A stretch of 61,062 nucleotides of DNA, the filler included, from Dugesia japonica (taxonomy: Eukaryota), in NCBI GenBank assembly GCA_001938525.1. It is 6 parts of 6 records of this genome, joined end to end, with 100 filler letters (N's around TTAATTAATTAA, not from the genome) between each part and the next. Parts side by side here need not be neighbours in the genome. Positions count along the whole stretch, not along the records: positions 51,584 to 61,062 come from MQRL01580320.1; 5 more parts are not named here. The stretch is one strand, 5' to 3'. Every line of letters starts with the position of its first letter. Position 1 is the first letter of the stretch. This document shows, one piece after another, positions 17,863 through 55,330 of this stretch. The translations under genes were made by a program, and so were the position numbers. The notes below the pieces were generated by a model. It saw only the letters and a program-made list of their open reading frames with translations, did no database searches and was not told the origin of the DNA.

Positions 17863-20800
17863 CTTGTTACAAATAAATTTTATTTTGATCGAAGCCTTTT
17901 CTTATTTTTATGAAACATTTATACAAATTATAAATAATAATAGATATTCCTTGTTTTATTGACATTCTTCATTTCGATCACTTTGACTTATTTGCTGAGC
18001 ACATTTTACCTTAGCCATCTAATTCTTAATTATCTTCAATTATTGTATATTTTAATATTTAATCCATTTTTCGTTTTCTCGACAGCTTTTTACAACTTTA
18101 TTTTCTTTTTATTGTTTTATCCTAGATTTTGTTCGATATTTCTTACANTTTTAACTTCAGTTATTATTATTTTATAATCATTTCCTGATTATTTCATAGA
18201 TTAATATTTCTTTTATTTCTTATTATTTTCTTATTCATTTTCTTATTAACCTTTAATTTATTTCCTTCACTGTTTTTCATATTTCACAAAAGGCTGTTTC
18301 AGCCCAACAGGCTTGTTAATATTTATAATTAGTTAATTTACATTATTTATATTTTCAATACTAAATATGAGATTAATTGCTGATGTAATTGAATAAGTGA
18401 TATCTATATTCATATCAAATGGTTCATAATTATCTAAATTAATGTAAAATAATGTTTTGTTTTCGACTTTATAATAATATTTCTTTTTTATTTTTAAAAA
18501 GTTTTACAAGAGTATTTTCAATTAATGGGGGTTTAGTTGTTATTACTGTTTTATGTATGTTTTTTAAGACTTTTAATGTAAGAATTGTAGTTGAGTTAAT
18601 GTGTTGGGGTGAAACACCTGCTCTGAGAAGAAAAACAATGCGAATTGTTCAAACCAGAGAAATAACGAAGGGCGGGAGTAGAAAAGAAGGTTAATTAGAA
18701 ATATGTGACAAACATACCAAATAAAAAGAATAAAAAGAGTGGAAGAAAGGTAAACGCCAAATGAATCAAACCCTGACCAATAACAATAATTAAATAAAAT
18801 TAAAATTTAGTTAGAAGAAACAAGAAAATAATTGTTTGGAAAATAATTAATTAGACCAAAAATATTAATTAATTTTGAACAAAAAATAAATTAAAATTAG
18901 ACAATAAACTGTTTTTGGAAGATAGCGATGCTCAGGGAGATCACATAGACTTGCGATAAGAAAATTCGAAAACGTAAGGATCAGGGGCAATAAGATCTCA
19001 CAATTAGGAAACGTTAACATCATCAGGAAAGCCTGGGGAAGGTTTCGAAGATTAAGCCAATCATACCAGAAAAAGAAAATCAAACAAAGCTACAAAAATC
19101 ACATGGCGATTTAAAAATAGGTACCAATGAAAACTCTAAAACTCTCTGAAAAAATCTGAAAATTGGCACCATCGCAAATCAGAAGCAAGAAGTTTGAATT
19201 AAAAATAGAAATCTAATGGCGATGATGCCGAGTTGAATCGGCAAATCATATATAAACCCCCCAAATTTTAGATGTAATTACCCTCAAATTGTGAGAATTG
19301 TTAGTTATTATAACAACGTGATATTAATTTTCTCGAAAAAACGTTTGTGAAAAAACTCTCAGCAATTCACTATCACGATAAAAAGTGTAAGGCAGAAATC
19401 TCTGTCAATTATTTTTCATTTTGAACTTACTATGTAATTGTAGAAGAAAAATACTTTGTCGGTAAAACAGACAAAACTAATCGAAAAGCAGAAATCCCCA
19501 TTAAATTTAGTTGGAATTGATTCGTATTTTGTTTAAGCCCATTGCAGAAAGAATTAAGAAAAAGTGAGTAGCAGTTTATTTCTGATTATGTTATGTGATG
19601 ATTGGATCAATTAATAAAATTTGTTCAATATAAAATTGTCAATTAAACTTTATTTACAGGAAATTAGTGCTGTAATTTCAGTGAATCGATACCCAGTTAA
19701 TTTTGTCAACCTTATCAATGATTTTTATCATGAATCAGCCCATAATAATTGACATACCTTTACGTTAAGAAACTATTCACCATTCTCATAAGAAAATACC
19801 CTCTTTAATCAATGCCAAAATACACCTACAGCAAACCCATATTTTTAAACAGTGACTAATGCATTACTTTGAATTATGTGACAAACACTCCAACTCGCTA
19901 ACAGAAGTTATAAACACTCCAGTTAGTATGTACCTGTTATGCAATCCGTCAGCAACATCATGAGTAGCACTCGATGCATGTCTACAAGTGACTGTTTCCC
20001 TAATATAATGTTAATCAGGTAAAATGTGACCCGAACGGTATCGATAAAGGAATATAGTATCAGTATTACAACACCACATATACAAGCAATTGGATGATGA
20101 TTTGTTAATAATTATTGTTGGCATTACTGACCCACTCTCTAATAGTACTCAACTTGAATATTGCACTTTTGACGCTTTAATTGACTAATTGATCTTACTT
20201 TCACGTTGAATTTCGTGTTATTTTCCAATCAAGAATTCAACGATGATAAGTAGTACTGCTAACCTTACCATTACTATTATTATCATTATTCAGNTACTAC
20301 GATCGTTATCATCGCGGATATTAAAACTAGTATAATCGTTAATAACCTAATTAATATTGTTTTATTTATTATTCATTATTATTATCAATCGTAACATTAG
20401 TATCATCAAAATTCACAGCTAACATTATTATAATTATTAACACCCGCAATATCATTACGATCGCTAATCATTAACATTATTATTTTTATAAAAAATTTAC
20501 TAATGACATCGTTATTGTCCTATTTGGTATTAGCATTTTCATTATTATTAGCAATCGTTATCATTATTACTATTAATTTTATTATAGTTATCACTAAATA
20601 TTATTATTATTACTACTCGTATCATTATTAAAATTGTCGTTATGGTTAGGGTTAAAATAATTATCATTATTCTTATTAATATCACTGTTATTACTTTTAT
20701 TATTATTGTTATTTTTAATAAAATTATTAATTCTTTGTTACTACGAATTGTCGTTAGCTATACCGTCATTTCTAGTCGTGCTAATACATTAAGTTTTCTT

Positions 20801-20875
20801 TTGATCAGCGGTTTAAATATTTCAAGTGACAGCCGCAATTTTGTATTGTGATTTAGAATTCCAGTTTCAGTTGCG

Positions 20876-21060
20876 ATGATTGATCTCTTGATAAGGACTT
20901 TAAGATTGATTCGCAGAGAGAAGCGAAAGGCTCGACGGAAGCAACTCCTAGCCCACGTTCTCTCCAGGGGTGCCATTGAACACCATGACTAAACAGATTT
21001 GCGGTGTTTCGTTGAGATTTCCCCTTGGAGTATCCAGTTTATATAGACGGTGAGAAATGA
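20876..21060 (+). pseudogene. LTR cassette A (copy 1): small basic protein
   Basis: MIDLLIRTLRLIRREKRKARRKQLLAHVL....HD*TDLRCF aligns with the 52356 ORF MSDILSQTLKFICSERERVRRKQLIGPIL....PDKTDLRWF. Confidence 0.7.
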
Positions 21061-21174
21061 TCGCTAACTTTGTCACACTGTGTTTTGAATTAAATATATA
21101 TTATTTGACTGCTCTTTTACTTTTATGGATATTAACATATTACCGTTATGATTTTTCTTTATTTCAGTAGGCAA

Positions 21175-21580
21175 ATGGAATAGAAGTGGAAAACACTTCT
21201 TGATCGGCGCACGAGTAGGGTGATATTTAAAAGGTATCGAAATCCCATGATCGAAATGCTGGAGTACTGACAGACTACTCTAACTTGTCTAAGGAAGATG
21301 GGACGCTGCCGAATGCAGGGCCTTCTATGAATGGAATGGACCCGACCGGTCACAAGATGTGCTCTACACGGCTATCGCGTTTTCCCCAATTAATAATGAA
21401 GAGATCAGTACGACCAGTGAATGCAGATAAGGCCCTTCCGTGATTCTCATCTCGGCGGCTCATCTACCACCCTTCTCTAGATTGAGAGCCTTCATCAGTG
21501 ACACTCTTTGGGAGTTACGAAATACAGCGGGCGTTAGTAATAGCGAGAATGCCGACACCGCAACTGATAATAATTACTGA
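21175..21580 (+). pseudogene. LTR cassette B (copy 1)
   Basis: WKTLLDRRTSRVIF..HDRNAGVLTDYSNLS...RAFISDTLWELR aligns with the 52660 frame ERVLDRRTRRMIF..HNKDAGILADRTNLS...REFVTNLLWGIR. Acceptor tttcag ends 21167; AATAAA at 21623. Confidence 0.7.
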
Positions 21581-21784
21581 TTCTGTATATGGACTCCAGG
21601 ATTTTGTGTGTCGCTTAGTAATAATAAATTATAGGCATCTTATTTGTTGTAATTTTAAATTTTAGTCCAATCTTTCTTAATTAATTAATGTAACCAATTT
21701 TCGGCATAATGTTTTTCATAAGATCTTTTTGTTGGTATTTTTCACATTTCTTAATCTAAAGTTCAGTAATGTCTCTCTTTACAG

Positions 21785-22143
21785 TGCATTCTTTGCTAAA
21801 TAGACTAGCAGCTCTGACCAAGAAGGTAAGGGAAACCAGTGAAGACATCGAGATGTCTTGGAAACTCTATAGGTTAGCGAAGCGCAGATGGGAAGCTGAA
21901 ACGGCCTCAGCAAACGCTAAGGTAAAAAGGTACAAAGCCCAGTGCATCTCCTTTAAAAAAGAAGCTGAAGTGTCCCACTCACAAGAGAGATTTTAAAAAT
22001 CACAAGTCGAATCCATCGCCAAAATCATCCGGTCCCTGCATGACCCTCAAAATAAACTGGTCGCCGATGTTTTGACCTTGAGGAAGGCAATACCCCTCAA
22101 ACCCGTGATGGTTGACAAGGGTACCCAAACATCACGCCTTTGA
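21785..22143 (+). pseudogene. LTR cassette C (copy 1): coiled-coil protein ending in DKGTQT
   Basis: 44/70 identical residues to ORF 53265 by hand alignment; one in-frame TAA where copy 2 has TGG; acceptor tttacag|TG; AATAAA at 22167. Confidence 0.8.
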
Positions 22144-22281
22144 ATGATTAGAACTTGTAAATTATAAATAAAATTCTCTAATTAATTAGTCTTGTTTCAT
22201 GTGCTTATGTTTGTTATAAGAATTCCTTATGTAATCATTACTTGTAGCAATCCGATTATTGCTTAATCTCACTTTATTTCA

Positions 22282-22647
22282 ATGCCACATATCCGGTTCC
22301 TCTCTAGTCTGCGCAGATCCCATAGACTTATCCAGAAACTCCTGCTGGAACGCCATCTAAAACAACAAACTGAACGCGCTTTGCTTCATCACTTGGCGCA
22401 ACGTAATCGATTAATTAAAAAGCTTGATTTGATCGTAAAGAAACAAGAAGAGTCAAATAAACGCACCCAAAAGATTCTCACCAATAAGATCGTTTTCCTC
22501 AAAATATACATCGCCGATCTAGCTACTTGCCTAGAAATTGAGCAATGGTCGCCTTGTCGCAGTGAAGATGATGAGGCAGCATTTGATATGATGGACGACG
22601 AACCCTCCTAATGGCTTGATTCGGGGGCAGTCGGTTTAATAGAATAA
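22282..22647 (+). CDS. LTR cassette D (copy 1): basic N-terminus, coiled coil, acidic tail
   Basis: 109-aa ORF to 22611, with homology continuing past the stop to 22647. Shares LIVKK..E...RT..IL.NKI.FL..YI.DL and DDEAAFD...EP with 53768-54130. Confidence 0.75.
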
Positions 22648-25049
22648 ATTTCTTTTAAAACAATGTTTTAAATTTTGTTTTGGTTTTAGCAAAGGAAAAC
22701 TAATGAACTCAAATATAAAAGTATGCGAGTGTGAACCTCAAATATAGGCTGGAGGTCAACCGTCCATACCGAAAACCTAATAAGGGACATTAGATAAATT
22801 CTTAAAAAGGTCCCCTGAGGGCTGTTTTTCCCCATCCGTGTTTTTATACCACAAACTCAGTTGGGACCCCAACAAATGCATCGGTTAATATTGAAGTTTC
22901 GTTTTTTCAGACAAGTCTTTATTATTGTATTTGTTCTGTTCTTTAGCTAATTGTTTTAATAAAGCTCTTCTATCATCGTACATTTTTAAGCAGTTATTTG
23001 TTTTAATATTTTAAACTAAACAACAATCTATTATGCAGGTCTCGTGTAAATGCCTATTCCATGTTTTGCTTCTTTTATTTTTAGTATTTTGTCTAATATT
23101 AATTTCCTTCCTATTTCATTAATAGCTAACTTTACTGAATTTGGTAAACATGATTTATTAATTAAATTATTTATAAAATCATAAACTATTTTGCTTTGAT
23201 AAGGATTTAAATAAATACCTTTGCATTTAAAAGGTTTTAAAGCTTAAGCATTTCAATTAGCTACCTATTTTAACTACCTTAATTCTTCTTCAATTGTTTT
23301 TCTTTCTAAATCTGTCTTTTTTGCTTTTTCAGCTTTTGAAACAGCACTTTCAACTCCAGCAGCAATACCAGCTACACTAGATAATCTCCCACTTATTGCA
23401 GGACTTAATGATAGTAATGACAATATTCCGCCTTCCTTAATCTCTTCATTGTTATTGTTTGTTTAACTTTTTACCTACCTAATATTTTTTTTGTTTATTA
23501 AAACTTATTTAGATTTATTAAAATGAATTAGTTCACTTAATTGTTCTTCAGTAAGAGAATGAGTAAGAAAATTAGTAACGAATTATTAATTTGAAATAAA
23601 AATAAAACACTATTTAATAATTAAGTTTTACCAAATATTTTTACATGATTATTTATGGAGTCATCTGGTATTGGAAAGAATTTATTATTAATGAAAATGT
23701 TATTAGATGATGATTTAATGGATTATAATAATTTAATATTTTATTCAACAGCTATAAACCAAATTGAATTACAAATAATTAAAAGAAGGAATTGAAAATG
23801 AGTTAACTAAGAAAGCAATTAGAAATATATTTAAGAAAAAAGATTGAATAACAGAAGAAAAAAATACTCCATACAATATTGCTGAATTGTATAAAGAAAA
23901 TATAAATGAATCTGATATTGAAGATAAAGATGAGTATGTTATATATGATTATGATAATAAAAGTAAAACTTGTTAGGTTTATTTATTGGTTTCATTAAAA
24001 TAAACTAAAATAAGACTTTTCATTCAATACTTTATTTAAAATACAAATAATTCTTCTTTGAAATTCTTCTTGCTTTTTGAACGCTTCTTTTCCACACTTG
24101 CCTTTCCCAATTTATATTTTTAAATAATAATAAACTTAAACAAATTTATTATATTTATCAAAAATATATTTTGCAAACATAAAACTTTCGAATTTAAAAT
24201 AATTTAAAAAGAAACCGATAAATAAATATTTTTATAAAGCTTTAAAATTACATTTCAAATTTACATTTAACAATTTAAATTAATAAACATTGATTTTAAT
24301 AAAAACCTAATTGCATTAAATTTTAAAAATATTAAAAAATTTACGAATTACTAAAATTATCTAAAATATTTATATTTATATTTAAGAATATATTTAAAAA
24401 TCAAGATAGAATAATAGAAGAAATAAATAATCCTTATAATATTGCTGAATGGTATAAAGAAAATATAAATGAATCTGATATTGAAAATAAATATGATTAT
24501 GTTATAGATGATCATGATAATGAAAATAAAATTAATAGTAGCTTTTCTAATAAACCAGAATATACTATCTATTGTGATAATCTATAATAAAAGAATCTAG
24601 TTATATCTGATCATGTAAATATTAAAAATCAAGATATACAGTAATCATATTTCACTAGAGGTAGATATAATAACTGTAATGTAATTTATATATCTCAAAC
24701 TTATTATGCTTTAGATAAAATTTCATTTAAAAAACAATTTTAATTGTTTTATATTTTTCAAATAGTGGAAATAAAGATATGGTTTATCAAGATTTAATTA
24801 GTAATTTAGAACCAGATAAATTGTCATAAGATAATTTTATTAGAAATGATTAAAAAGATAAATAAAATTACTAGGATAATCTTTTTTAACCTTAAAAAAA
24901 ACATTTGACTTTATCTGACCAATATCTTGACTTTATACTGGAAATTTTTAAATTTATGTTTCGTCTTATAAACAATTAAATCTGCTTAATAGTCTTAAAA
25001 TTTAAGAAAATTGTGCTTTGTAAATGCAAAATATATCAATTATAACTGA

Positions 25050-37185: not shown

Positions 37186-39695
37186 TTAAACCAGCTTCTT
37201 TTATACGTTTCAAAACATTGTCAATTCTCTTATAGTGTTCTTTAATAGTTTCGGAAAAACTAAAATATCATCTAAGTAAACCCCTGCTTCCTTCCAATTT
37301 AATGGACCTAAAACCTTATTCATCAATTTTTGAAAAGTAGCAGGGGCAGCTGCGATTCTAAAGGGCATTCTATTAAAATAATATTGTGCACCTTTTGTCG
37401 AAAATGCAGTTTTACATTTTGAGTCATCTGTTAATTCTACTTGATAGTAAGCATTACNNNNNNNNNNNNNNNNNNNNNNNNNNNNNNNNNNNNNNNNNNN
37501 NNNNATTTCTTCAGTGTTTGGAATAGGAAAAATTGGTCTTTCTGTAACTTCATTTAACAATCTATACTCTAAGCAAAGTCGTATTTCATCATTGTCTCCT
37601 TTTTTTACGCAAACCAAAGGAGCATTCCAAGGGAAGTCACATTTACTTATAATTCCATTTATTTCCATTTCTTTTATATTTATCTCAATTTTATCTATTA
37701 AATGATAAGGTTGACGCCTATGATTTATTGCAATTGGTTTACAATTTGTTAATATTGCATGTCTTACAATATTAGTTTTTCCAATATCCCATTTATGTTT
37801 CATTATAATGCTTTCATATTTTTCTAAATTCGTCAAAATCATTTTATCTTTAATATTTTTAATTTTTAATGTTTTCGGTTTAAATTTAATTACATTAACA
37901 GATTCTTTATTAATGGTGAGTTTTATATTAAATTTATTCAATAGATTAATTCCACAAATAACATGTGGTGAGATTTCTTTAGCAACATAAAAACAAATAT
38001 TCTCCATTTTTTCATTAAGCTTTACATTTAAATATACTTTTCCTACACTTTTTTAAAGAACTATTATTCGCACATTTGACATTTATATCAGAATCAATTA
38101 TTGAAACATTTCCTATTCTATTTAATAATTCATATTTAATTACACTAATTTTAGCTCCAGTATCAAGTAAACATGATGTAACAATATTATTAATNNNNNN
38201 NNNNNNNNNNNNNNNNNNNNNNNNNNNNNNNNNNNNNNNNNNNNNNNNNNNNNNNNNNNNNNNNNNNNNNNNNNNNNNNNNNNNNNNNNNNNNNNNNNNN
38301 NNNNNNNNNNNNNNTTACAAAGTTATTTTTATTATCAACAATTATATCAAGCATAACATCATCACACAAATTATTTTCAAGCAATTCAGTATCATACACA
38401 CATTTACAATCATTATCAATCATAAAATTATTGCTCAAATCAAATCTTACATTTTTAATGAATCGCCCCGACAATTTCCTCTCTTGGAAGGGCTTTGGCT
38501 TTTCGGAATTGATCTGTCATAGTTCTGTCATCATCTGTCATCAAATCATCTGAATGTTCATTGTATGCTGCAACATTTTATTGACGATAATCTCTTTTCA
38601 TATCCCGAATCTCATAGCATTGATGTTTAAAATGTCCAGTTCTGTTACACTGGAAACATTTTACATTTGGACAATTAATTCTGACATGTCCTTCTTCTTT
38701 GAATGCCCAACATCGTTTAGATCTTTGTGGAAAATTATTTTCTGTTCTCTTAAATCCTCTTCCGTCAAAACGATTAATGGGTGCATTTGAATTAAAATAT
38801 CTTCTGGAATTCGAATATCGGTTTCTGTTGTTTTCCACTAAATTGTTCCTTTTAAATGTGACTGGTCGATTTGGCTGAAAATCATTAAATTTGGCAGTTG
38901 TTGCATAATTCTTCTTTTCGATTTAACTGCTGCAACATTGACTTCTAGATTAAGCTCCTTCTTGATACTGTACATTTTTGAAATAATATTTTTCATTTCT
39001 TCATTTGTTCTTGATACTCGAATTTTTATTTCTTTTTTAACATCTATATCTTCAACAGCATTTTGTAAAAGAAAACTGACCAGATTTTCATTTGTCAAGT
39101 TATGCCTGATTACATTCTCTGCAAGACGATCAATTTTGTTAAAAAACAAATTTATGGATTCGTTTCCTTTTCGATAATTTAATGCAGATAATAAATCTTT
39201 ACCGATATTTGCTGGTTCTTCAAAAGCTTTTCGGCATCTTTGGGCATAATCTTCAATTGAACCATCCATGGATTCATATCTTTTAACAGCATTTGAGGAA
39301 AGAAATGCTTTTATAAATGTTCTTTGAACAGGTCCTTGAGCCATTGTAAGCTCATAAAATCTTGCTATCTCGATTAAAAATTCTTCCACGCAGTCTCCAA
39401 TATCGAATGTATTTGGAGTTGGAACAAAGGAATTGAGCATATGCCCTTGGGTGGTCGCCATATTAGAAGTCTGTTTCATAACCATAATATTTATTAATAT
39501 GACAATATAAAAGGAGGAATAAATATATATGTAACTATGATTTGAGCAATCAACATACCTCAATCAGCAAACAAACATTGATCTGTTATGCAACACACAA
39601 AATATTTGAACTCTTTGTCAAATATTAATTATGCAGCATACAGTTTTAATAAGCCTTTATAATAAATATAAGATATCCTCACAGTAATTATGACA
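37186..39695 (-). mobile_element. Gypsy/Ty3 LTR retrotransposon, 5' half (LTR about 39461-39695, PBS, gag, protease, RT), truncated by contig join
   Basis: PBS TGGCGACCA overlapping the gag ATG; two CCHC-type knuckles (first degenerate; second CFQCNRTGHFKHQC); protease LLDTGA at about 38160; RT motifs WNAPLVCVKK, KTAFST, MPF.IAAAPATFQ, YLDD; frameshifts. Confidence 0.92.
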
Positions 39696-41346: not shown

Positions 41347-42048
41347 ATGGTTTCAAATGATCTGTTGATTTGTCCAAATAATCTTTGTAAAAAGGTTTTT
41401 AAAAATAAATCAGGATTATCAAGTCATATTAGATCAAATTGTTATCGTTTAGATAGAACAAGAATTATGTCTTGTGAAATTTGTAAAATATTTTTTATGA
41501 GAGGAAATAAACGAAAAACCCATTTCTATTTAAAGAAAAATAAAAAAATGGCTATTAAATCATTATTCGATGAATTACCTGGTGAAGAAGCAATTGAATA
41601 TTATCCAGAAATTCAGCGTATTTTTAGAATTTATAAAAACTATGAAATTAAATATTTAAAAGAAAATAAAGTTGAATTAACTAGAAATATTGAAGAGTTA
41701 GAAAGACCAGTAAAAATGATTAATGAATTTCAATTTGAAATCTTGCAAATTGAAACAAAGTATTTTAATTATGGAAAAAGGGTTTTTATTCAAATGAGTG
41801 TAAATAGTAATTATAATAAAGAAGTTAAAGAAATTAGAATTGCAAGTGAAGTTGAAGAAAAAGTTAATGATATTTTAAATCAACTTCAAAGATTTATTGA
41901 AGCTGAATTTGGGTGGAATTTAAATTATATTGTTTATTTTAAAATTAAACTTTCAACTCATAAACAGATTAATGAATTAAAAACCGTTGGTAATAAAAAA
42001 TTATATTATCTTTATGATGATTTTATAGGACCCTTTTGGTTTGTTTGA
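41347..42048 (+). CDS. C2H2-zinc-finger protein with a C-terminal segment resembling the GSGW region of Polinton PolB N-termini
   Basis: CPNNLCKKVFKNKSGLSSHIR; FIEAEFGWNLNYIVYFKIKL. Confidence 0.55.
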   Translation: MVSNDLLICPNNLCKKVFKNKSGLSSHIRSNCYRLDRTRIMSCEICKIFFMRGNKRKTHFYLKKNKKMAIKSLFDELPGEEAIEYYPEIQRIFRIYKNYEIKYLKENKVELTRNIEELERPVKMINEFQFEILQIETKYFNYGKRVFIQMSVNSNYNKEVKEIRIASEVEEKVNDILNQLQRFIEAEFGWNLNYIVYFKIKLSTHKQINELKTVGNKKLYYLYDDFIGPFWFV

Positions 42049-42173
42049 ATTTTTATTTGAAGAGTATTTTATACTTGTTTTAAATTCTACGAACAACAGA
42101 ATATAGAAGTTTGAAGGATGAGTATAAAGAAACCTGTAAAGATTGGGGATTTTTTATTATTTATTATTAGAAA

Positions 42174-43180
42174 ATGGAAACAACAAAAATTAATCTTAAT
42201 AATAATATTAATTTTCAACATTTATTTTTGATAAATGATGTTTTGAGAATTTCACCCTCATCTGGAACAATTAATAATTTAATGTCTTCTGGAGATATAA
42301 CTTTTCAATCTTCAAATCCATTAGACATTTATAATTCAATGTTATATTTTAAAGTTAAATTAGAATTTGGTGCGGCTAACGCTCATAAAGATAAAATAAA
42401 TTTAGAAAATAATTGGTTTCCAAGTTTATTCAAAACAATGAGATTAACTTTAGGATCTTCAGATGAAGAAATAATTAATGATCCAGGAATTTCATCAACT
42501 GCTACTTTAAAATTAATGAATCTAGAACTACATATCCCAGAATGTAGATTAGTTAAAAAAATGGAAGTAAATCTTTTAGAAAGAATTAACACAAATAAAT
42601 CTATTCAAGTTTCATTTTTAAATAGAATTACNNNNAAAACAACTTTAGATTCAGGAAATTATTATTCAGTTAAACTGAGTAATTTAACTTATAAACCAAG
42701 ATATATATTTATTGAAATAAAAGATTCGGAAATTTCATATCAAAAGAATAATAATTTATTTATTCAACAAAATAGTAAAACTGTAAAAATAAAAGAAGGG
42801 ACTGTTGAAAAAGAAGTTACAACAAAACATTATCTTAAAAGTATTCAAGTACAATTAAACAATACATATTATTTTATAAATGAATGTAAATTTAATATTA
42901 ATAATAATGAAATGATTTTTCCATAGTTAAATTATGTAAATTGTTGTAAAGACTTTTTAACAGAACCACAATTATCTCTTTAAGAATTTTGGGATTTGTA
43001 TCCAATCTTTTGTTCTGATGTTAGTTCCCAGGATCATAAATTAAATATAAATACTGTAGATATAACTTTACATATAACTAAAGATACTGATTTTAAACGG
43101 TATTTATGTTAGTGTATTTTAGAAGAAAAACATATTGAAATGAAATTATCAAATAGTAAAATTGTAATGATTGAAAATAA
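42174..43180 (+). pseudogene. Double-jelly-roll major capsid protein (hexon-like), apparently internally deleted
   Basis: LENNWFPSLF..MRL, LELHIP, KPRYIFI, LKSIQVQLNNTYY and, past the stop at 42926, EFWDLYPIFCSDVSSQ, typical of Polinton/adintovirus MCP. Confidence 0.75.
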
Positions 43181-43243
43181 ACGAGGTGACACTTTTTATT
43201 TAGAGTTTAAGTTTAAAAATAAAATATTTAGATTTTAAATAAA

Positions 43244-44521
43244 ATGGATAAAAATAAATATATTTTTGAAAATTGTAAGAAAATATTACTTAGAAAAAAT
43301 AAAGCTAGACATTTAAGAATTTGTTTAAAGAAAACTGGAGGTGATTTACAATCTTCTAAATTAACTTCAACAATTTTAAAACCATTTACTTGGGAAAAGT
43401 ATCCAGGTGAAAGACATTTGTTTAAACATAATTATACTGGCCCCGGAACAAGATTAGATTCTGAAGGTAAACCAAAACCTGGAGAAGAACCAATCAATAG
43501 AGTAGATGAAGCAGCTTTTAAACATGATTTATCTTATAAAAATGAAAATATTAGAGATAGACATTTAGCTNNNNNNNNNNNNNNNNNNNNNNNNNNNNNN
43601 NNNCCTAATCCTAGTATTTCAGAAAAAATACAAAGAAGTTTAGTAAAATTAGCAATGAAAGGTAAAATCGTTTTAGGTGCTGGCCCTATTATTAAAAGCA
43701 AAGAAAGTAATTTTCAAAATAAAGAAATATTAGCAAACGAACTTCACAAAGAATATAGAAAACCAAAATATTTTCTAAAAGTAACAATAAAAGAAAACAA
43801 TAATACTTAGGGTTGTGATATTATTGATATGGTTAAAAAATCAACTGTGGGTTTTAGATATATTTTAGTTTGTATTGATTTATATTCTAGATTTGGTTTT
43901 TGCATACCAATGAAAAATAAAAACCAAGAATCATTAAAAGATGCTTATGAAAATATATTTGAAGAAAATAATCGAATTCCTGATTATATCTGGTTTGACA
44001 AAGAATCAGCTATTAGATCAAAGTACTTTGATAAATGTATTAAAGAAAATGAAAATAATTTGTATCATACTGAAAACGAAGGTAAATCAGTTTTTGCTGA
44101 AAGATTTATTAGAACTCTAAAAAATAAAATGTGGAAAGATTTTACATTAACAGGAAACCAAAAATGGAATAAAAACTTGTTAGATAAAATTGTAAATGAT
44201 TATAATAATACAATTCATAGTTCTATAAAAACAACCCCAAAAGAAGCTAGTGAAAATCCAGAAAAAATAAAAGAAATAATCGAAGATCATAACCATGAAA
44301 ATGATTCAATATAATTTAAACAGAAATTTAAAATTGAAGATAGAGTTAGATTATTTAAATATAAATTTGAAAAAGGTTTTACAGCTAAATGGACAAGTGA
44401 AATATTTGTTGTAACAAAAGTACATAAAACAAAACCATTTACTTATGAAATTAGTGATTTAGAAAACGAAAAGATCTTGGATAAATTTTATAATAATGAA
44501 CTTCAGAAAACTGTTTTATAA
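43244..44521 (+). pseudogene. Parvovirus-type phospholipase A2 domain fused in frame to rve (DDE) integrase
   Basis: HNYTGPGT (Ca loop), PINRVDEAAFKHDLSY (HD catalytic); same frame continues to ANELHK..NNT*GCDIIDM, CIDLYSRF, IWFDKES, AERFIRTLK, YNNTIHSSIK, FEKGFTAKWTSEIF; two nonsense codons (43808, 44312). Confidence 0.88.
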
Positions 44522-45018
44522 ATTTAAAATTAATAAATTAAAATGAGTGAGCCTGAAGGAACCCATTCTTTTGATTTTCTTTTTAAAGGTGTTTTAAATG
44601 AAGAAACAAAAAAAGCTTTAAAAGAAGATATTAAACAAGAATTAGAAGAAGAAATTAAACAAGAATTAAAAGAAGAAAATAAATACTTAAAGAAAACACT
44701 ATCACCCATCAATAAAAAAACTCCACCGGAATATTTTTGGAAGTGGATAATTGTATGTCATCTGAAGAAGGATATGAAGAAATAGCAATATTAACCAACT
44801 ATTTTAAAAATTTTGATTTTGCTAATATGGATCGATATAGTATAGGTATTTTTGATTTAATAGTAATTAAACTAAAAGATGAATGTATGAGGGGTTCTAT
44901 AGATCTCTTCGATGTAAAAGAATTCTTTGATAAAAAAATAANNNNNNNNNNNNNNNNNNNNNNNNNNNNNNNNNNNNNNNNNNNNNNNNNNAAATCTTAA
45001 TTTTTTTATTAAATAAAA

Positions 45019-45741
45019 ATGTCTCAATTAATCGGTAAAACTTCAACATTGTTAATTTGGAATAAAAATAAAATATCTTTAATAATAAAATCTTTCCCTC
45101 TAATTTTACATTATTAATAATTGGTTCTTCTGGATCTGGTAAAAATGTTTTATTAATGAAAATGTTATTAACTCCTAGTTTTTTAGATTATGATACTTTG
45201 ATAATTTATTCTACAACTATAAATCAATTTGAATTACAATTACTTTATCATGGTTTTGAAAATGGATTAACAAAAGAAGATATTATTTTTATTTTTGAAC
45301 ATCAAAATATAATTTCAAATTCTTTAATATTCCCATTAGAAAAATGTTTCCATAAAAATACTCAAGATAAATACTTGGGATAAATTATCTAAGGATAAAA
45401 AGAATTTTATAGTTTTCGATGATGTTGTTAATGAAAAAAATCAAGACGTTCAAACAAGTTATTTTACTAGAGGAAGACGTGTAAATTGCAACGTAATTTA
45501 TATTTCACAAACTTATTTCAGTTTGGATAAAAACTCTATTAGAAATAATTCCAACTGTTTTATATTTTTTAAATTAAATAAAACTGATAAAGATAATGCT
45601 TATTATGATTTATTTAGTAATATATTTTCAAGTAAAATGGAATATGATTATGAAGTTAATTTACATTGGAAAACAAAGTATAATTATTACTATTTAGATA
45701 GAGAAGCTGGAGTTTTAATGGAAGATTTATTTGAAGAGTGA
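45019..45741 (+). pseudogene. A32/FtsK-like genome packaging ATPase
   Basis: Walker A IIGSSGSGKN (about 45118), Walker B IVFDD, RGRRVNCNVIYISQTYF, SIRNNSN; frameshifts. Confidence 0.88.
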
Positions 45742-45858
45742 AAATATCCCACTGGGAAACTGTGGTATTCTACTTCAACTTCAACTTTATGTTAAAATCT
45801 TATATCATTTCTTTTTCTTAAATAATATAATTTTTGGTATATTATTTTTACAAATAAA

Positions 45859-46405
45859 ATGTCTTCAAGAATTAATTGATTTGATAAATTCAAAGAAATT
45901 TAAATCTGTAAAAATTAAAGGAAACAACTATTGGATTGGAAATAAAGTTAAAGAAGAACTAAAAAAGAAAATGACAACTAGTAAAGAACATGAAGGTGGA
46001 TTTGCTTTCCTCGCAGCAATACCAGCTATAATTGCTGGTTTAGCTTCTACAGCTGGAATTGCAACTGGAATTACATCAACTATTAATAATTCAAGAGATG
46101 CAATTAAAAAGCAAAAAGAAACCGAATTAGTAGAATTACAGAAAAAAGAATTTATTGACATTCATGACCAAAGGGAATTAGAAAATAAAATTAAAAAAGA
46201 AAATGAAATTGAATTATTAGATAAAGATATTGCTTAAAAGAAACAAGGAAGTGGACTTTACTTAAAACCTTATTAAGGAAGTTCAATTCATAAATATTTA
46301 AAAAATATTTTAGATAATTCAGAATTGAAAATGATAACTAAAAACTTTAAGAAAGGAGTACAAGTTAAAATAAAAGGTGATGGTTTATATTTAAAACCTT
46401 TTTAA
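45859..46405 (+). pseudogene. Polinton core/membrane-penetration-like protein
   Basis: EGG followed by amphipathic FAFLAAIPAIIAGLASTAGIATGI; downstream GSGLYLKPY and GDGLYLKPF repeats past stops. Confidence 0.65.
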
Positions 46406-47150
46406 AATGGATAGTGAACAAATAACAGAAAGAATAAAACTTTTGAAAGATTTAATTAAAGCTCAAGATAATTATGATAATTTATGTACTGGTAATGTAA
46501 TTGAATCAAGAACTTTACAAAATACTTGAACTATTCAACAACAACCTACTATTAAAGCAATTGAAAATCCCAGAGGGTCCCATACAAACTCATTTGAAAA
46601 AAGAATACCATTCTTTCCTAAAATTAATTTAAATATTAAAAATTTATCATCATTAATTACACCAACATTTGAAATAGAAAATATTGATAATAAAAACTTT
46701 CTAAAGATAAGTTATCNNNNNNNNNNNNTATATTTATTTGAAGAAGATGGAAAGAAATACTTTTTATCTAAAGAAGAAGTAATACCATATTCTAAAGAAG
46801 TAACGAATTTAATTTTGGGAAATGGAAGTAATGATTCAGAAGCAATTGATATTTATTTAAAAAAATTAAAGATTATATTTCCTACTAATTCTAAATATCG
46901 TGATTTATTAACTAGGAAAAAAGAAGTCAATTATTATTAAACCAAGAGTTAATTACTCAAGAAAAATATAATGTTTATAAAAATAAATACTAAAAATAAA
47001 TTTAATTTTACTAAAAAAGAATTATTTTATCTTTCAATAAATATTAACCAAATTTTAGAGAAACATAAACCAATAGAAAGAATTACTTTAATTTTACCAG
47101 CAAATATTTATATTGATAATATTACAATTTCAAATTAATCTTTTAAGAAA

Positions 47151-49964
47151 ATGTCTGAGTTTGAAGAGAATTAACTAACACAAACGAAGAGTGAGAATCA
47201 AAATCCCAAAGGGTCCCATAAATATCCTGATTTAAACGAATATATTTATTCATATTTTGAATATGCAATTAAAAATCAAAAAAACACTATAGAAGATTTA
47301 ACCCTTAACCGCCCAGAAAGCTTTTTATACCAAAACCACCCAGTAGTGTCTAACAGATACTACATAGAAAATCATTTAAATTATAAAAAAAAATAATAAA
47401 ATTTATTTTTATTACAGAGAAGAACACTGTTTGCATTGAATGTTTTTGTAGAATGTTCAAGACAAACATTTTGATTACATGTATTACAACATTGTTTTGA
47501 ATTCCTTGCAATTTTACACGGGCATATGTGACACCTTTTTTTTTACTGCGGATTCTTTTACGATTGAATCTTCAAACTGCTGTTGACTTGTACTTGCAAG
47601 CTGAACTCAGTTAACCCTTTTTTCTCTCGTCTCTGAATGTGAGGACTGACTAATTCGGCTGCTATTTATCGTAGAAAACGTTTTTTCTGTGCTCTTTTCT
47701 TTCCTTCTTTCCATCTAGGATACAATCGTTTTCATATTACAAAAGATGCAATCCTAACAATATCAAGCATATTTTGTAAAAACGCTACGGGCCATCTATT
47801 TGTTTTGTGGCGAGTTGAGTATTCATGTGCTAACTGATCCATTGTATCAACACCACCTTTTGTTTTATTATAATAAATATTAATTTCCGATATTTTTTTG
47901 TTGTTAGCATCAAATTGATTGCTATGGTGCATAGTAGATCATAAAATAACAGCTCTGTTCTTTTTTGGAACATTTGAAACTAAGGTTATTTTTTCAGAAT
48001 CCAAAGATATTAGTTTCAATATTCTGTCCTCTAATTGGCTGAAAATTGTATGGAATACAGCGTTTTTTTTTCTAAGAGTACCGACCATTGTCAGACCATT
48101 ATGAAGTAATGATTGTGCAATCTCAAAGCTTGTAAAATAGTTATCAAATGTAATATTTCTATGCGTTTCATAATATGGTTCACATAATGTAAGTACAACA
48201 TGATGAGATAAATTTTCTGTCTTACTCTGTTCAAGTTTTCCAAGGTATGGTAAACCAGCAAGAGGATAACTTGTTTCACTATCACAAATACACCATACCT
48301 TCATACCATACTTGTCAGGCTTAGATAGCAAGTATTGTTTAAATGATACTCTGCCTTTGAAAGAAATAAGTTGTTCGTCAATCGATAAGTTTTCACCAGG
48401 TAAATAGAACTTTTGAAGCTTAATATTGATATCGGTCAAAATATCTCTGATAGGCACCAATTTATCTTTTGATCTTCTTTGAGACTTTGTAGCTTTATTA
48501 TCAAATCTTAAAAAACGTTGGATATCCGCAAATCTATCTTTACCCATTGTAGCACGAAAAATAGGACAACCAAGCATTAAATCCCAATATTCTGTGAAAT
48601 CCACATTATTATGTTTGTTGACAGCACTAGCAATTAGTAAACCAAAAAATGCTTGCAGCTCAATGGCATCTATTTGNNNNNNNNNNNNNNNNNNNNNNNN
48701 NNNNNNNNNNNNNNNNNNNNNNNNNNNNNNNNNNNNNNNNNNNNNNNNNNNNNNNNNNNNNNNNNNNNNNNNNNNNNNNNNNNNNNNNNNNNNNNNNNNN
48801 NNNNNNNNNNNNNNNNNNNNNNNNNNNNNNNNNNNNNNNNNNNNNNNNNNNNNNNNNNNNNNNNNNNNNNNNNNNNNNNNNNNNNNTTACCTAAATATTG
48901 GACAATTGATTTTGAAACATGTTTCTCTTCTGTTGGGAAATATTCATTGTCACTGCATGTTTGTTCATCACTTTTCTCTGATCCAACCTCTGTAAAATTG
49001 TCTTCAATCTCACTTTCTACTTCTGGGATAAAATCTTGGTTGTCACTGTCAGAATTATCATCATGATTTAAGTCCTGTAATACAGTTAGCAGCTCCTTCT
49101 CAGTTACTACCATATTATTAATAATTTCTAAATGTCTAAATTATTTGATGTTAAGTAATAAGATTTGACTTACATTTTTTACAATATTTATTGAAATTAT
49201 ACTTATAGTTATTTGTGTAAGTAAATTACATCACCAAGATTATTTTATTACTGTTAACCTTATAACACTATATGTTGTGTCTATCAGACACACCTAGGTC
49301 TTTGTGTCACATTTATAACCTTTTAATAATTGCAAAAGTAATAATTTGATTTAAATGACTTCAATTAGTAATTTTGGTTGACAAGACTGTAGTAATAAAT
49401 TAGATGAAGTTTACTTTGTATACATTCAAAACTTTAGATGTACTATGAAAACGAAATTTAAAAAGTGCCTCTGAGTCACTACTGGTCGGTTAAGGGTTAA
49501 AAGAAAAATTATCAGACTTAAGAATTGTTGATTTTGAATCAGATCTTTATTTCATTGATGATAAAATTAACTATTATAAAAAGATTTATAAAAGATGGTC
49601 ACGATTAGATACCTCGATTAGATTTACTGAAATATTTATTGTAACAGTTGTTAGAATAACTGGCATTATATTAATTTCTTTAGAAACCTTTGATGTAGGA
49701 GGATTAATTCCAATTATTTTAACAAGTGTAGTTTCTTGTATTCTAGTAATTGGTACTTTGAATTCATCTTTAATAAAAGCAAAAAAGAATAACTATAAAA
49801 ATTTAATTCATGAATTAGAAACTGTTAAAAATAAGTTATTTTTATTCCAACAAAAAACTTTAAGTGATGGTCTTTTAACAGATGAAGAAATATCAATAAG
49901 CAAAAATATGGTAAAACAAGTAAAAGATTTAATTTCCCATGAAAAATTGAAAATGATTTATTAA
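47151..49964 (+). pseudogene. Two-TM Polinton/adintovirus protein (gasderminX-like), interrupted by piggyBac
   Basis: Removing 47302-49500 restores one frame: ...KYPDLNE..IEDLKEKLSDLR..YYKKIYKRW..TM-TM..KTLSDGLLTDEEI (one early stop near the start). Confidence 0.7.
47302..49496 (-). mobile_element. Full-length (2195-bp) but frameshifted piggyBac transposon
   Basis: TTAA TSDs at 47298-47301 and 49497-49500; 15-bp TIRs CCCTTAACCGCCCAG / CCCTTAACCGACCAG; transposase motifs IDEQL, KPDKYGMK, TFDNYFTS, YNKTKGGVDTMDQ, RWP and a Cys-rich tail. Confidence 0.96.
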
Positions 49965-50049
49965 AAAAACTTGAAGAACAAATCGAAAATCAACAGAAAA
50001 TAATAAATAAATTAAAGAGCTAACTCAAACGAAGAGGAAATGAATTGAT

Positions 50050-50358
50050 TGTGCCCACGGGCACAGGTTTTATATATTTACATTTTAGAAACTGGTGACT
50101 GCAGTAACCACTTTTAGAAATTAACTCAAGCGTTAACCGCTTTTGATTTAAAATTTTTAGATTTAAGAAACTGGTGACTGCAGTAACCACTTTATATTTT
50201 AAGATAAGAATTNGCGAACCANGGTTCGTTTTTTTAATTTTATATTAGAATAAGTAAGAAATAATTTCTATTTTGAATTCCTCATTTTTACCCTTTAAAA
50301 TCCCAGAGGGTTCCATCCTCACAAATTACAATTTAGAAACTGGTGACCGCGGTAACCA
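50050..50358. repeat. Cluster of short palindromes between convergent Polinton genes
   Basis: TGGTGACTGCAGTAACCA x2 (50093, 50172), TGGTGACCGCGGTAACCA (50341), TGTGCCC-AC-GGGCACA (50050), CGAACC-AN-GGTTCG, AAGCG-TTAAC-CGCTT. Confidence 0.85.
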
Positions 50359-50419
50359 CTTTTTTATTTTTATATTAAATTACAATTTAATTTTTGTTTT
50401 AATTTATCTAACCTTAAAT

Positions 50420-51483
50420 GCCACTCACTACAATTAAAACATTTAAATTTTTTTCCATAAGGCTAAGTTCTTACACCATTATCCTCAATTAATCTATTAT
50501 CATCATAAACAGTTAAAGCAATCTTTTTTTGCTCAACTAATTCTATTTCGTGTTTATTTGATTTTAAACTATAATTAGTTCCATAAATATTTTCTTTTGA
50601 GTTTAAAGCTTTATCGAATTCTTTCATACCTATTTCATTAAACTTTGAAACTACTTTATGTCTTTTATCTAATTTATTGTCAAACTCATAAGCATAACTT
50701 TTAGCTTTTATAAAATCACATTTAACTATTTCGTTATTAGATTTTTCATCTTTCATTTGAAATAAATTATTTCCTAATAAACTTTCTACTTTTGTTAAAT
50801 TATTTCTACCTATTATTTCTATAAAAATTGAATCTGTGTCACTATAATGAATTTTATATTTATTTGGAATATTTACATCTAACTGATTATAAATAAAATC
50901 ATAAATAACTTCCTTTGCATATTCTAATATAGTAAAACCAATGTTGGGAAACTTGTTATATTTTAAATTTTATATTTTAGATTGTCTTAAATGAATAGCT
51001 GCTGTTTCTGCGATTCCAGTTTCTGTACATGTAAATATTTTAATAGATCTAAGTTTATTTTTAATGCAAATTTCTGATAATCTCTATCACTTCCAACTAT
51101 TTCTACATTAAACCTTTTCTAATATCTCCTACTGTCTTTCCATAAAAAGCATTATTTAATAATTTAAAGAAATAATCACCAAACACATCGTTTGTTCTTT
51201 TAGATGTGTTTTTTTGATCGATATTAAATTGAATATAATCCTTTAACCAAGGTTTTATTGGAAGAATCATTTTTTGTTGGATCCTTATATTCTTGAATGT
51301 ATTTTTTTAATTTTCATTCCTAGTTTTAAATATAAATCTAATGTACTTCCTAAAACTATATAATTTTCTTTATCAAATTGATTCAAGGTTAATTTAATAT
51401 TTTTCTTGAATAATTTCTTATTAAATGATAATTGATAAGGAGCTAACATTTCTTGAGTTATATTTATTCTATCTGGAGCTAAT
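50420..51483 (-). pseudogene. Protein-primed family B DNA polymerase, C-terminal half
   Basis: FKLLNNAFYGKT (motif B), GFTILEYAKEVIYDFIY, HYSDTDSIF (motif C), KAKSY, KIAL..YDDNR. Confidence 0.92.
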
Positions 51484-52355
51484 NNNNNNNNNNNNNNNNN
51501 NNNNNNNNNNNNNNNNNNNNNNNNNNNTTAATTAATTAANNNNNNNNNNNNNNNNNNNNNNNNNNNNNNNNNNNNNNNNNNNNCCCACAAGATCTAACAT
51601 AGATAACTCAAGAAATATAATTTTAAATGGCTGATTTTATTACAATAAAAACAGATAATACATCAGTGTTAAACCACTGTAATATTATCTCAACAAAATA
51701 ATTTTAATAAAGAAACAAATAATAATCTCAACAGATTTATATTTGTTCTAAACAAATCAAAAATAAATTTTCACATTTAACTACTAATAATTAGCTTTTT
51801 AAATTTTTATTGATGCTTGCTAGGCAACTGCTAATTTAGCTTAAAAATTTAAGTCTGCCAACTACTGATTTTCAATCAGTATTTATACTAAATTTATTGA
51901 GTATGTGTGTTAATACACAGAAAAGACTTTAAGAAAATATTCATTATTACCAAATATAGTAATTATTTATTTCTCGATTGAGAAATATGAGTGAGAAAAA
52001 TATTTATTAAATTGTTGTTATTTTTAGTTACTAAATTTAGTAATTTATAAAATTCTTTTTTTTATTAAATTGAATAATCTTGAATAAATTAATAAATTGA
52101 TAAATTTAAACAAATAGAAATTTTAATAAACTAATTAAAAATTTTATGAATGAATTTATAAACTAAATAAATTAATGTAAGCTTAGCTTACAACCCTAAC
52201 ATTATTCTCATTATTTTCCCAATTAACATCATTATCGCCTTGAGATGATTTATTTGAATATCAATTCCGCTTACTTTTATGAGGGCTCGTTTCCCGTGGT
52301 GGTTGATCTTTCATTATTAATTTACTATTGTAAATTGTTTTTTAGGTCGGAAGAC

Positions 52356-52541
52356 ATGTCAGACATCTTAAGTCAAACTTTAAAATTCATTTGTAGTGAA
52401 AGGGAACGGGTTCGGCGAAAGCAACTGATCGGTCCTATTTTAGCACCATATCGGATTCTGTCGCCTGACAAAACCGATCTGCGATGGTTTGAAGATTTAT
52501 TCCCACTCCAAACTAATGCTGACTTAGATCAGACATATTGA
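52356..52541 (+). CDS. LTR cassette A (copy 2)
   Basis: Acceptor ttttag ends 52345, ATG 52356, stop 52541, AATAAA 52562; homologous to 20876. Confidence 0.7.
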   Translation: MSDILSQTLKFICSERERVRRKQLIGPILAPYRILSPDKTDLRWFEDLFPLQTNADLDQTY

Positions 52542-52659
52542 TTTTCTAACTGTTAGTCTTAAATAAAAACATTAACTTAGCTAATTTTTTTTCTTTTTTG
52601 TATTGAATTTGTTCGAAAACTACCAATTTATAAATTTATATTTAAGTTTATGCTTTTAG

Positions 52660-52998
52660 TGAACGTAATCTGAGAAAGAGTTTTGGATAGGCGTACTCGA
52701 AGAATGATTTTCCGGCCCCATGTCAACCCCCACAATAAGGATGCTGGCATACTGGCCGATCGCACTAACCTATCTCCCGTAGAAGCCTGAGTGGATAGAA
52801 TTCAGGATTTCGGCGAACGTCAGCAGTACTATAACTGTAATGGCCGCCACAAAATTTGGCAACCCGGTTTACCTACCATACTTCCGATTCCCCCATGTAG
52901 TAAGAGAATTTGTCACCAACCTGCTTTGGGGTATTAGGGAGCCTGACACAAATGAAGATGTTGAGAATATGGAAAACGTGACACATGCAACAAACTGA
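52660..52998 (+). pseudogene. LTR cassette B (copy 2)
   Basis: Acceptor ttttag|TG, internal stops and a frameshift, AATAAA 53036; homologous to 21175. Confidence 0.7.
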
Positions 52999-53265
52999 AT
53001 TCAATGTATTTTACTCCATTGCTGTGTTTTCGTTTAATAAATGTCTTCTCGTATGATCGGTTAAAGGAAAATTTATCTTACTTGTCTTAAGTAGTTTATC
53101 TGATTCATCGTTTTATTCATAGGATATAATTATACAATTTTCTTTGTTTCGTCTAATTTATCAATCTTGAATTATAAAACGATGTTTATAATGATATATA
53201 TATTTTTGGTGTCTACATCAATCATCGTAACCACTAACTTGAATAACCTTTTAATTAACCTTCAG

Positions 53266-53615
53266 TGCATTCATCACTCAACCGTTTGGTTACCAGTACT
53301 AAGAATATTCGAGAAAGTAGTAAGGACGTCGAGATGTCCTGGGAATTGTATAAGTTGGCCAAGCGTAAGTCGGAGGCAAACACAGTCAGTGCTATAGCGA
53401 AAGTCAAGCGCTATTGTCCGAAATGCCAGACGTATCGACTCGAAGCGGAAGCTTCACATTCACAGGAACGACTCTGGAAAAAGCAACTAGAATCATTCAC
53501 AGAGGCTATCCAGTCCCTCCATGACCGTGAAAATAAACTGGTCACCGAACTACACAATCGATTGCCAATGGAACCCCTGATGATTGATAAATCCACACCA
53601 ACTTCGCGTTCATGA
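53266..53615 (+). CDS. LTR cassette C (copy 2): intact 116-aa coiled-coil protein
   Basis: Acceptor cttcag|TG, open to stop 53615, AATAAA 53644; ends DKSTPT. Confidence 0.8.
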
Positions 53616-53767
53616 CAGTATTTGTTAAATCGGTTTTGGTGTGAATAAAATTATTTAACTTGAGTAGACTGATCAGTGTTCCTTAACCAATTTTATTATA
53701 TTGATTTTATTGACTATTCAAAGTCATTTATATTTGTTTAACTCTTAAATTATCATTTCTATTTCAG

Positions 53768-54130
53768 TGCCTCGAATTCGTCTGCCAAATAATCCACGAC
53801 GATGCTCATCGGATAATTCAAAAGCTCTTACTTGGACGTCACTTTAAGAGACAAACCGAACGGGAGTAACTGCAACATTTAACCCAACGAAGTTGGTTAA
53901 TAAAAAAATTATATTTGATAGTAAAAAAGAAAGGAGAACTAGCGGAACGCACTAAACAGATCCTCGACAACAAAATCGAATTTTTACAACAATATATAGA
54001 CGACCTGTCCAATCGCTTCGAACAGGAGACGTGGGTCCGCTGGAACAATGATGACGACGAGGCCGCCTTCGATTTTGCGAATGGTGAGCCCACTCAGTGG
54101 TCAGACCCTTGTGCTCTAGATTTTATGTAA
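53768..54130 (+). pseudogene. LTR cassette D (copy 2)
   Basis: Acceptor tttcag|TG CCT (PRIRL vs MPHIRF), frameshift and stop near the start, acidic tail DDDEAAFDF..EPTQW; AATAAA about 54140. Confidence 0.75.
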
Positions 54131-55330
54131 ATAACAAAAAATAAATCTTAGTTCCAATTTATTGATCATTTGTTTTATAAATTAAAATACGGGGAAACAA
54201 TGAACCCAAAAATAAAGGTGTACGAGTGTGTTCTTCAAGTAAGCGCTGGAAGTCAACCACTATATACCGATGAACTAATTAGGGACATTAGGAAAATTCT
54301 TTGAGAGGTCCCCTGAGGGCTGATTTTTCCCCTAGCCAAAGTTTTTCCATCAACAACTAAGGCGGAACCCCAACAGTATTACAATATCAAATGGACATGA
54401 ATTTGCCTTTAGCTTGAATGATTTTATCTGATAAATAAGCTTAAGTGAATCACTATCAAATCTTTTCAAAGAAAGTCATTTCTATTATTTATTTGGATAT
54501 AATGAAATCATTATTAGTCCTCTTTTCGAATCTTTGTTCTTTAGAAAATGTGTGACGATGTTTGAACTTTTAATCGGTGATTATGAATTCAAATTAGAAC
54601 TAGCGCAATCCATTTTTTGTTTGATTGCGAAGAATTGACCAAATTATTAATATTTAGGTAAAACGTTCTGAATTCTCAGTGCTCTCTTCATTCTGATCTG
54701 ATTTATTGACTAGTGAATAATTTCTAATTAAAAAATTTAAAAATTTTCAAAATGTAAAAGCGTACAAACTTTTATGTAACAATCAACATTATTAAATAAA
54801 ACCAATTATATAAAATTAATTAAATTGTGATTATTAAACAAAAAATGAAAATATAAATTATAGTAATCAAACTAATTATCAAATGGCAATGAAATTCTGT
54901 ATAGAGAGAAAAAATTCAAAATCAGAACAATTTCAGAACCAAGTTATTAACAGAATAATTTTTTATTTGAGTTTGAACTATTCAAACCATCCTGTCATTT
55001 CACCCTAACACTCTCGATTCAAAACTGTAAAACTTAGGAGAAGTCTAAATTCAAGAATGTCTTATCAACTATAATTGTAGTCTTCTACTAAACAAAACTA
55101 GCAATTATTATTCAATTAAAATTAAATGAAAAATANNNNNNNNNNNNNNNNNNNNNNNNNNNNNNNNNNNNNNNNNNNNNNNNNNAAAAATAAGAACAAA
55201 ATTTCTAATTGCTTTACAATTACAATTATTGAGAGAATAATTGTTGGACATAACCATTGGTCGTTTTCCAGAATGCATTAAAATAAAAGCTTCGATCAAA
55301 ATTGTGTTTTTTTGGTTTTTGATAATTATT

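Follow-up and report, generated by a model that had tools for sequence, protein, structure and literature searches.

Several small open reading frames at this planarian locus begin, in genomic DNA, with a TG placed directly behind an apparent splice acceptor, which raises the question of what supplies the first base of their start codon and what kind of unit carries them. The window, by which we mean the whole stretch of 61,062 nucleotides of Dugesia japonica DNA that was analysed, holds two copies of this arrangement, each with four GC-richer blocks (cassettes A to D, numbered here by copy) and AT-rich spacers between them. The earlier note on this DNA had recognised the cassettes but missed the LTR-like repeat that encloses them. 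The cassettes are listed below, with a slash marking an acceptor junction.

20876..21046, + strand: cassette A1; own ATG 5 nt past the acceptor; one premature stop
21175..21600, + strand: cassette B1; acceptor G at 21167, own ATG 7 nt on; a stop and a frameshift; 3' end approximate
21783..22143, + strand: cassette C1; AG/TG acceptor; one premature stop
22282..22647, + strand: cassette D1; AA-TG; one late premature stop
52344..52541, + strand: cassette A2; acceptor, 10 nt, then ATG at 52356 and a 61-aa open ORF; AATAAA at 52562
52658..52937, + strand: cassette B2; AG/TG; two premature stops; AATAAA at 53036
53264..53615, + strand: cassette C2; AG/TG followed by 115 open codons; AATAAA at 53644
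53766..54130, + strand: cassette D2; AG/TG; one premature stop; AATAAA at 54140

Four acceptors, as read from the sequence, have TG next.

52658-9, + strand: acceptor AG of B2, TG next
53264-5, + strand: acceptor AG of C2, TG next
53766-7, + strand: acceptor AG of D2, TG next
21783-4, + strand: acceptor AG of C1, TG next

All four of these sites lie where the earlier note had placed them, as do the genomic ATGs of copy 1 in cassettes B (21175) and D (22282), and each AG/TG site reads as an in-frame GTG in genomic DNA. The accompanying claim that the conserved frame opens two bases past the AG was borne out for cassette C by a BLOSUM score of 332, compared with 70 and 58 for the other frames; for B and D, the phase came from copy-to-copy codon alignment and frame analysis. 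In the window outside both copies, 13 of 227 acceptor-like sites have TG next, and against this background the chance of AG/TG in three non-homologous cassettes among five is about 2e-3, with the frame requirement not yet added. BLASTP produced zero alignment between cassettes C and D, and tblastn with cassette B produced zero matches in C or D. Since C and D do not align, AG/TG recurs in non-homologous cassettes, and this recurrence is beyond chance.

The two genomic ATGs of copy 1 had been offered as homologues with a real start codon, a claim that held for B1, which is independent, and less well for D1. The B1 ATG aligns codon for codon with the xTG of B2, and a separate acceptor lies 7 nt ahead of this ATG. 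D1 differs from D2 by a single base at the acceptor G (TTTC-AA-TG versus TTTC-AG-TG, with 11 of the 12 surrounding bases identical), and because the base that creates the D1 ATG also destroys the acceptor, this ATG is not independent evidence. The AA-TG of D1 may have arisen by decay, or D1 may have switched to the AG at 22246-7, and two copies allow either direction of change.

Conservation between the copies makes it very probable that translation starts at the xTG codon of the junction. That position, already proposed as the initiator, was corroborated by constraint on the N terminus of C, by the lack of a usable Met in D2, and by the B1 ATG. In cassette C, an in-frame ATG first appears at codon 23 in either copy; codons 2-23 have a pN/pS of 0.21 versus 0.30 for the remainder, and 15 of their 27 differences fall at third positions (p=0.014). 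From -3 to +7 around the C acceptor, the copies are identical at 10 of 10 positions, compared with 42-46% identity in spacers and introns and approximately 60% in coding sequence. The body of D2 has no in-frame Met before its last residue (107 of 107), and the first codons of D are constrained in the A/TG frame (pN/pS 0.46, 9 codons). When B and D were each considered alone, the N-terminal selection signal was not significant (p about 0.15 each). The tracts ahead of the acceptors are rich in pyrimidines, and no AG occurs over 141 nt in C2 or over 42 nt in D2.

Comparison of copy 1 with copy 2 gave pN/pS values of 0.47 for A, 0.44 for B, 0.28 for C, and 0.27 for D, at a pS of 0.73-0.93 across A-D (0.86, near-saturated, in C). 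Low pN/pS at such a high pS indicates that selection acted on the encoded proteins during a long divergence, and by this sequence comparison A-D are four orphan ORFs, 61-120 codons in size, under purifying selection. Stops and indels, at positions that differ between the copies, show both to be decayed; among them is a 1-nt indel near 53800 in D2 relative to copy 1. A nuclear code in which TGA specifies Trp, suggested by TGA at Trp positions in B2, was rejected, as neighbouring ORFs use TGG and 5 of 5 sister contigs differ from copy 2 at the B2 stop. Between each stop and the next acceptor, an A(A/T)TAAA hexamer is present in 8 of 8 cassettes. AATAAA occurs 12 and 14 times in the two copies, about the chance level for AT-rich spacers, and since it is so common here, a hexamer after the stop is only suggestive of a polyA signal.

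The cassettes are enclosed in a longer repeat with the following features.

18598..18601, no strand: left target-site duplication, 4 bp; identical 4-mer at 22875-22878
22875..22878, no strand: right target-site duplication, 4 bp; matches the left copy
18602..22874, + strand: copy 1, a 4,273-bp solo-LTR-like unit with TG..CA ends and 9-bp inverted termini
51584..54375, + strand: copy 2, same family as copy 1 by the shared terminal 9-mer at 54375 and contig depth
22703..22874, + strand: conserved LTR end 'E' of copy 1; pS 0.28; 130 of 176 positions identical to copy 2
54200..54375, + strand: conserved end of copy 2, counterpart of 'E'; donor-like site preceded by A at 54239, absent from copy 1

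The left terminal 8-mer of copy 1 (at 18602) occurs once in the window, its reverse complement lies at 22867-22874, and terminus and target-site duplication together have a chance expectation of about 7e-4. Ginger-like DNA transposons also have TG..CA ends and a 4-bp target-site duplication, together with long TIRs and a DDE transposase. In copy 1 the inverted termini match at 9 of 9 positions and beyond that at 11 of 20; a match ending after 9 bp is what an LTR would show and a long-TIR DNA transposon would not, and a Ginger-like element was rejected on this short match and on the lack of a Pfam family in A2, C2, D1, and E2. The 5' end of copy 2 is beyond reach, a gap at 51484-51583 adjoining it, and 51584-52200 is only tentatively included in the copy.

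In run X1, 2,377 contigs aligned on copy 2, and because they cover introns and flank, X1 is DNA. Depth was 867-1169 over the last 350 bp of copy 2 (up to 54392), stepped from 1169 to 9.6 at its 3' end, and past the copy was 6-30 in five of six flank bins and 320 in the other; 111 contigs lay over 53512, inside cassette C. One sister contig aligns from 52657 onward, i.e., from the B2 acceptor. The unit thus belongs to a large dispersed high-copy family. The unit shows TG...CA ends with a short inverted repeat, a 4-bp target-site duplication (within the 4-6 bp range), multiple dispersed copies, and a sharp boundary, all marks of a solo LTR, and the preferred reading of copy 1 is a 4.3-kb solo LTR. 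Its parent was probably a Gypsy-type retrotransposon of an AT-rich animal; no gag-pol was linked to either copy.

Because its synonymous sites are conserved (pS 0.28 versus 0.73-0.93 in A-D), we rejected the conserved end 'E' as a fifth gene, and it is probably a cis-acting end. Folding of the LTR end was no better than that of shuffles (z 0.59 and 1.66), and the two copies did not align above shuffles in their upstream regions (5 of 100 shuffles in the best case, one of nine settings).

Searches for relatives of the encoded proteins and of the locus were negative within their scope. A word-index homologue search gave 0 of 3 candidates for C2 and 0 of 5 for D1, and a profile of C found 0 matches among 1.84 billion representatives. 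Pfam gave none for the four proteins scanned (A2, C2, D1, and E2, with B outside the scan), and an atlas search gave low-recognition matches only for C, which were left unused, and none for D. Related loci numbered 0 of 11 stretches in viral contigs and 0 of 318 in metagenome contigs, the LTR-end DNA motif occurred 0 times in the viral and metagenome contig collections, and Rfam had 0 matches in the window. The AlphaFold model of C (2-sequence input) is one 97-residue helix with a pTM of 0.39, and a single-helix model indicates no function.

The reading that we favor, with a probability of about 0.6, is a giant LTR of a Gypsy-type element with four alternative 3'-terminal exons, onto which splicing of an A-ending leader would create A/UG. 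The LTR would encode four small accessory proteins (A-D) as these exons, a single non-coding leader would be cis-spliced to any of the four acceptors, and each product would terminate at the polyA signal of its own cassette. If the leader ends in A, an acceptor inside the start codon (AG/TG) would restore AUG after splicing; the completing base was arrived at by elimination and is rather likely to be A. We infer splicing, polyA use, the donor, the last base of the leader, and the parent element as parts of this model. In one possible layout, the promoter would lie at 19249 with the cassettes downstream within the same LTR; in another, promoter and donor would lie in the conserved 3' end (54239, copy 2 only), and the cassettes would be in U3, reached across the internal region. 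That the LTR is a self-contained multi-gene unit, with one promoter, an A-ending leader, four orphan-protein terminal exons, and repeated A/UG, is a more tentative proposal that we hold at somewhat under even odds.

With an A-ending leader, YCA-ATG and YC-AG/TG would interconvert by one base change at no cost, and this interchange would allow either form in homologous cassettes without a regulatory purpose. Switching between the forms would then probably be neutral drift more than a regulatory lock. The earlier note had held that unspliced RNA could not translate the cassettes, but A1, A2, and B1 retain an ordinary ATG. Other ATGs precede every cassette in unspliced RNA. Given the ordinary ATGs of A1, A2, and B1, a regulatory lock on unspliced RNA is a weak proposition.

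Two upstream features bear on the leader.

19249..19256, + strand: TATA-like box TATATAAA, candidate promoter from sequence only
19564..19569, + strand: candidate donor A/GTGAGT, the only GTRAGT among those listed in copy 1

The box had been claimed at about 19250, and it and the A/GT donor-like sites at 19564, 51901, and 51991 are all present. The support once drawn from an A preceding these donors dissolved, as A precedes GTRAGT in 14 of 38 cases in the window, a chance level, and the upstream regions of the copies are without detectable homology. Two ATGs lie between the TATA box and the 19564 donor, each with a stop immediately after it; these immediate-stop ATGs, along with the position of 19564 as the only listed GTRAGT in copy 1, speak slightly in favor of 19564 as a candidate donor. 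Acceptor-like AGs were also noted at 19659 and 19681, about 95 and 117 nt past this candidate, and the one at 19681 is again AG/TG, with a 23-codon frame by eye. At 51709-51752, in what may be part of the LTR, a motif of about 40 nt is common to many contigs and to X6 oligo-dT reads of relatives.

In runs X2, X3, and X6 aligned to copy 2, RNA depth was zero at all three acceptor bins, with 6, 60, and 19 reads placed, respectively, from approximately 6, 25, and 25 per 100 of the runs read. No RNA splice joint was present among the joints listed for these runs, and no GT..AG ends were present among the 15 of 27 DNA-contig joints listed on copy 2, which were set aside. The 40 of 547 substitution rows and 14 of 613 loose ends that were listed include no change at the acceptors, and this absence was given no weight. 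The oligo-dT run X3 had 26-32 reads of diverged relatives over cassette C; at 53512, first mates were minus in 26 and plus in 6, which is the sense orientation if the library was dUTP-stranded, and the loose ends, among those listed, read by eye as an open C frame. Diverged relatives of cassette C are transcribed.

Most spliceosomal exons end in G, and such an end would give GUG here. The same splicing with a G-ending leader, with the cassettes starting at near-cognate GUG and yielding low protein levels, is the alternative that survives best, although we consider it unlikely. GTG is in frame at all four genomic sites, no junction reads cover the acceptors, and the A before candidate donors is at chance level, all of which this alternative accommodates. 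However, it needs AUG-to-GUG to have been fixed in three non-homologous cassettes, each exactly at the acceptor, GUG would have to persist in C despite a pS of 0.86, and the homologous B1 has ATG.

We consider it less probable that the start comes from a short leader exon that is coding and in phase 1, as in env of the ZAM/Beagle subclade, leaving xTG as an internal codon. Env of insect endogenous retroviruses offers a precedent in the accessible part of its source (bioRxiv 10.1101/2023.08.03.551782), an ATG one base upstream of the 51991 candidate donor is in frame with C, B, and D, and A1 is likewise in phase 1. However, the phase is a different one in A2 (10 nt) and B1 (7 or 4 nt). Acceptor-to-ATG distances of 5 nt in A1, 7 nt in B1, and 10 nt in A2 are of mixed phase, so that a common coding leader fits poorly. 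Such a leader also leaves TG at +1/+2 in three unrelated cassettes unexplained, at a background of 13 of 227.

Slightly less probable again is the view that the AGs are unused and that GTG is a decayed ATG (A-to-G) in dead copies. Stops and indels in both copies, the D copies differing by exactly that base, and zero reads over the acceptors are all consistent with decay. It sits poorly with the 10-nt C junction block kept in two deeply diverged copies, with the pyrimidine-rich tracts and the AG-free zones of C2 and D2, and with the sister contig that aligns from the B2 acceptor onward. Trans-splicing of a spliced leader onto these acceptors to bring the start codon is barely credible: flatworm leaders do end in ATG, according to the accessible part of the source (PMC12582326), but an AUG-ending leader, as the earlier note had argued, gives the wrong frame in B2 (a stop after Met), C1 (a stop after 5 aa), and C2 (an unconserved 44-aa frame), and while D2 as it stands departs from that argument by being in frame with such a leader, it is so through its 1-nt indel, and the first codons of D are conserved in the A/TG frame.

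The proposed A-ending leader and its A/UG junctions have a close counterpart in the springer subclade of insect endogenous retroviruses, whose env is described in the accessible part of the source as spliced 'to an AU dinucleotide' within the start codon (bioRxiv 10.1101/2023.08.03.551782). As described there, the likeness is an initiator completed at a splice junction on the subgenomic RNA of an LTR retroelement. In springer, the junction is AU/G, a single env gene lies downstream of pol, and the junctions were mapped, whereas here it would be A/UG and would occur within the LTR, in three out of four orphan ORFs that are unrelated to one another. Membership in the springer-type split-start env group, whose AU/G junction precedes an F-type envelope ORF, was rejected on the x/TG phase, the ORF sizes of 61-120 codons, and the lack of a family match among the proteins scanned. 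The split start works like that of springer env without membership in that group. A split start is in itself already known; the apparent novelty is a multi-gene LTR with A/UG in three unrelated cassettes, and this LTR is of no less interest than the split codon.

LTRs are usually taken as non-coding, and solo LTRs as regulatory debris. Coding sequence in an LTR is nevertheless known from MMTV sag, HIV nef, and foamy bel, and the adenovirus major late unit splices one leader to several acceptors with alternative polyA sites. Our locus differs from these in having four cassettes wholly within a 4.3-kb repeat, and we claim no sequence similarity to them. Among elements likened to it by description, the giant Gypsy elements of planarians called Burro exceed 30 kb overall with internal regions of up to 25 kb (PMC6431247), and plant Ogre LTRs span 1.9-6.5 kb (PMC11410931). 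As far as the accessible parts of these sources go, the likeness includes very long LTRs, thousands of copies, an AT-rich host, and accessory ORFs, but those extra ORFs lie in the internal region and the terminal repeats are called non-coding, whereas here the ORFs lie within the LTR. The accessible parts of four other sources (PMC8532177, PMC13465017, PMC8797187, and 10.64898/2026.01.28.702291) added nothing on LTR structure. By title or abstract, no LTR with several spliced ORFs is described in the accessible literature, which excludes most subscription papers.

If the proposed A-ending leader and four terminal exons are correct, four selected ORFs per LTR would mean that a high-copy family scatters unknown small proteins across the host genome, and recombination, wherever it left a solo LTR, would leave a four-gene expression cassette, dispersed in very many copies independently of gag-pol. 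Gene finders would miss or truncate the ORFs because three lack a genomic ATG. The repeated A/UG junctions, if true, would provide an uncomplicated natural example of an acceptor moving into a start codon.

AT-rich eukaryotic DNA makes up the window as a whole, and remnants of Polinton, piggyBac, and Gypsy-like elements are present in it. It contains 100-base gaps at 8998-9097, 17535-17634, 25973-26072, 37086-37185, and 51484-51583, each consisting of N runs on both sides of a 12-base spacer; the three spacers that were read are an all-frame-stop 12-mer. As these gaps are linkers, adjacency across them is uncertain, for example, from the Polinton to copy 2. At approximately 4750-7160, AT-rich spacers alternate with small ORF blocks of higher GC content (minus strand, 5878-6186 and about 4950-5430) behind a TG-like end at about 4748; this stretch could represent another LTR family built along similar lines, and tblastn gave it no similarity to A-E. 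It is followed at about 7160-9000 (minus strand) by fragments of a hAT-like transposase and, near 7160, a TIR-like end, both seen by eye. Gypsy-like gag/protease/RT remnants (RVT_1 match) occupy 37210-39563 (minus strand), and no link between them and the giant LTR family was seen. A decayed Polinton/Maverick-like element extends over 41347-51500, with an integrase (PF00665), an A32-like ATPase, and a phospholipase A2-like domain (PF08398) by Pfam; this region also has a PolB-like ORF by eye at 50463-50969 (minus strand) and a piggyBac-type transposase (PF13843, E 4e-51) at 47939-49140 (minus strand). Downstream of copy 1, short fragments at 23582-24808 and 29167-29366 are 71-75% identical to the Polinton ATPase region and to another repeat.
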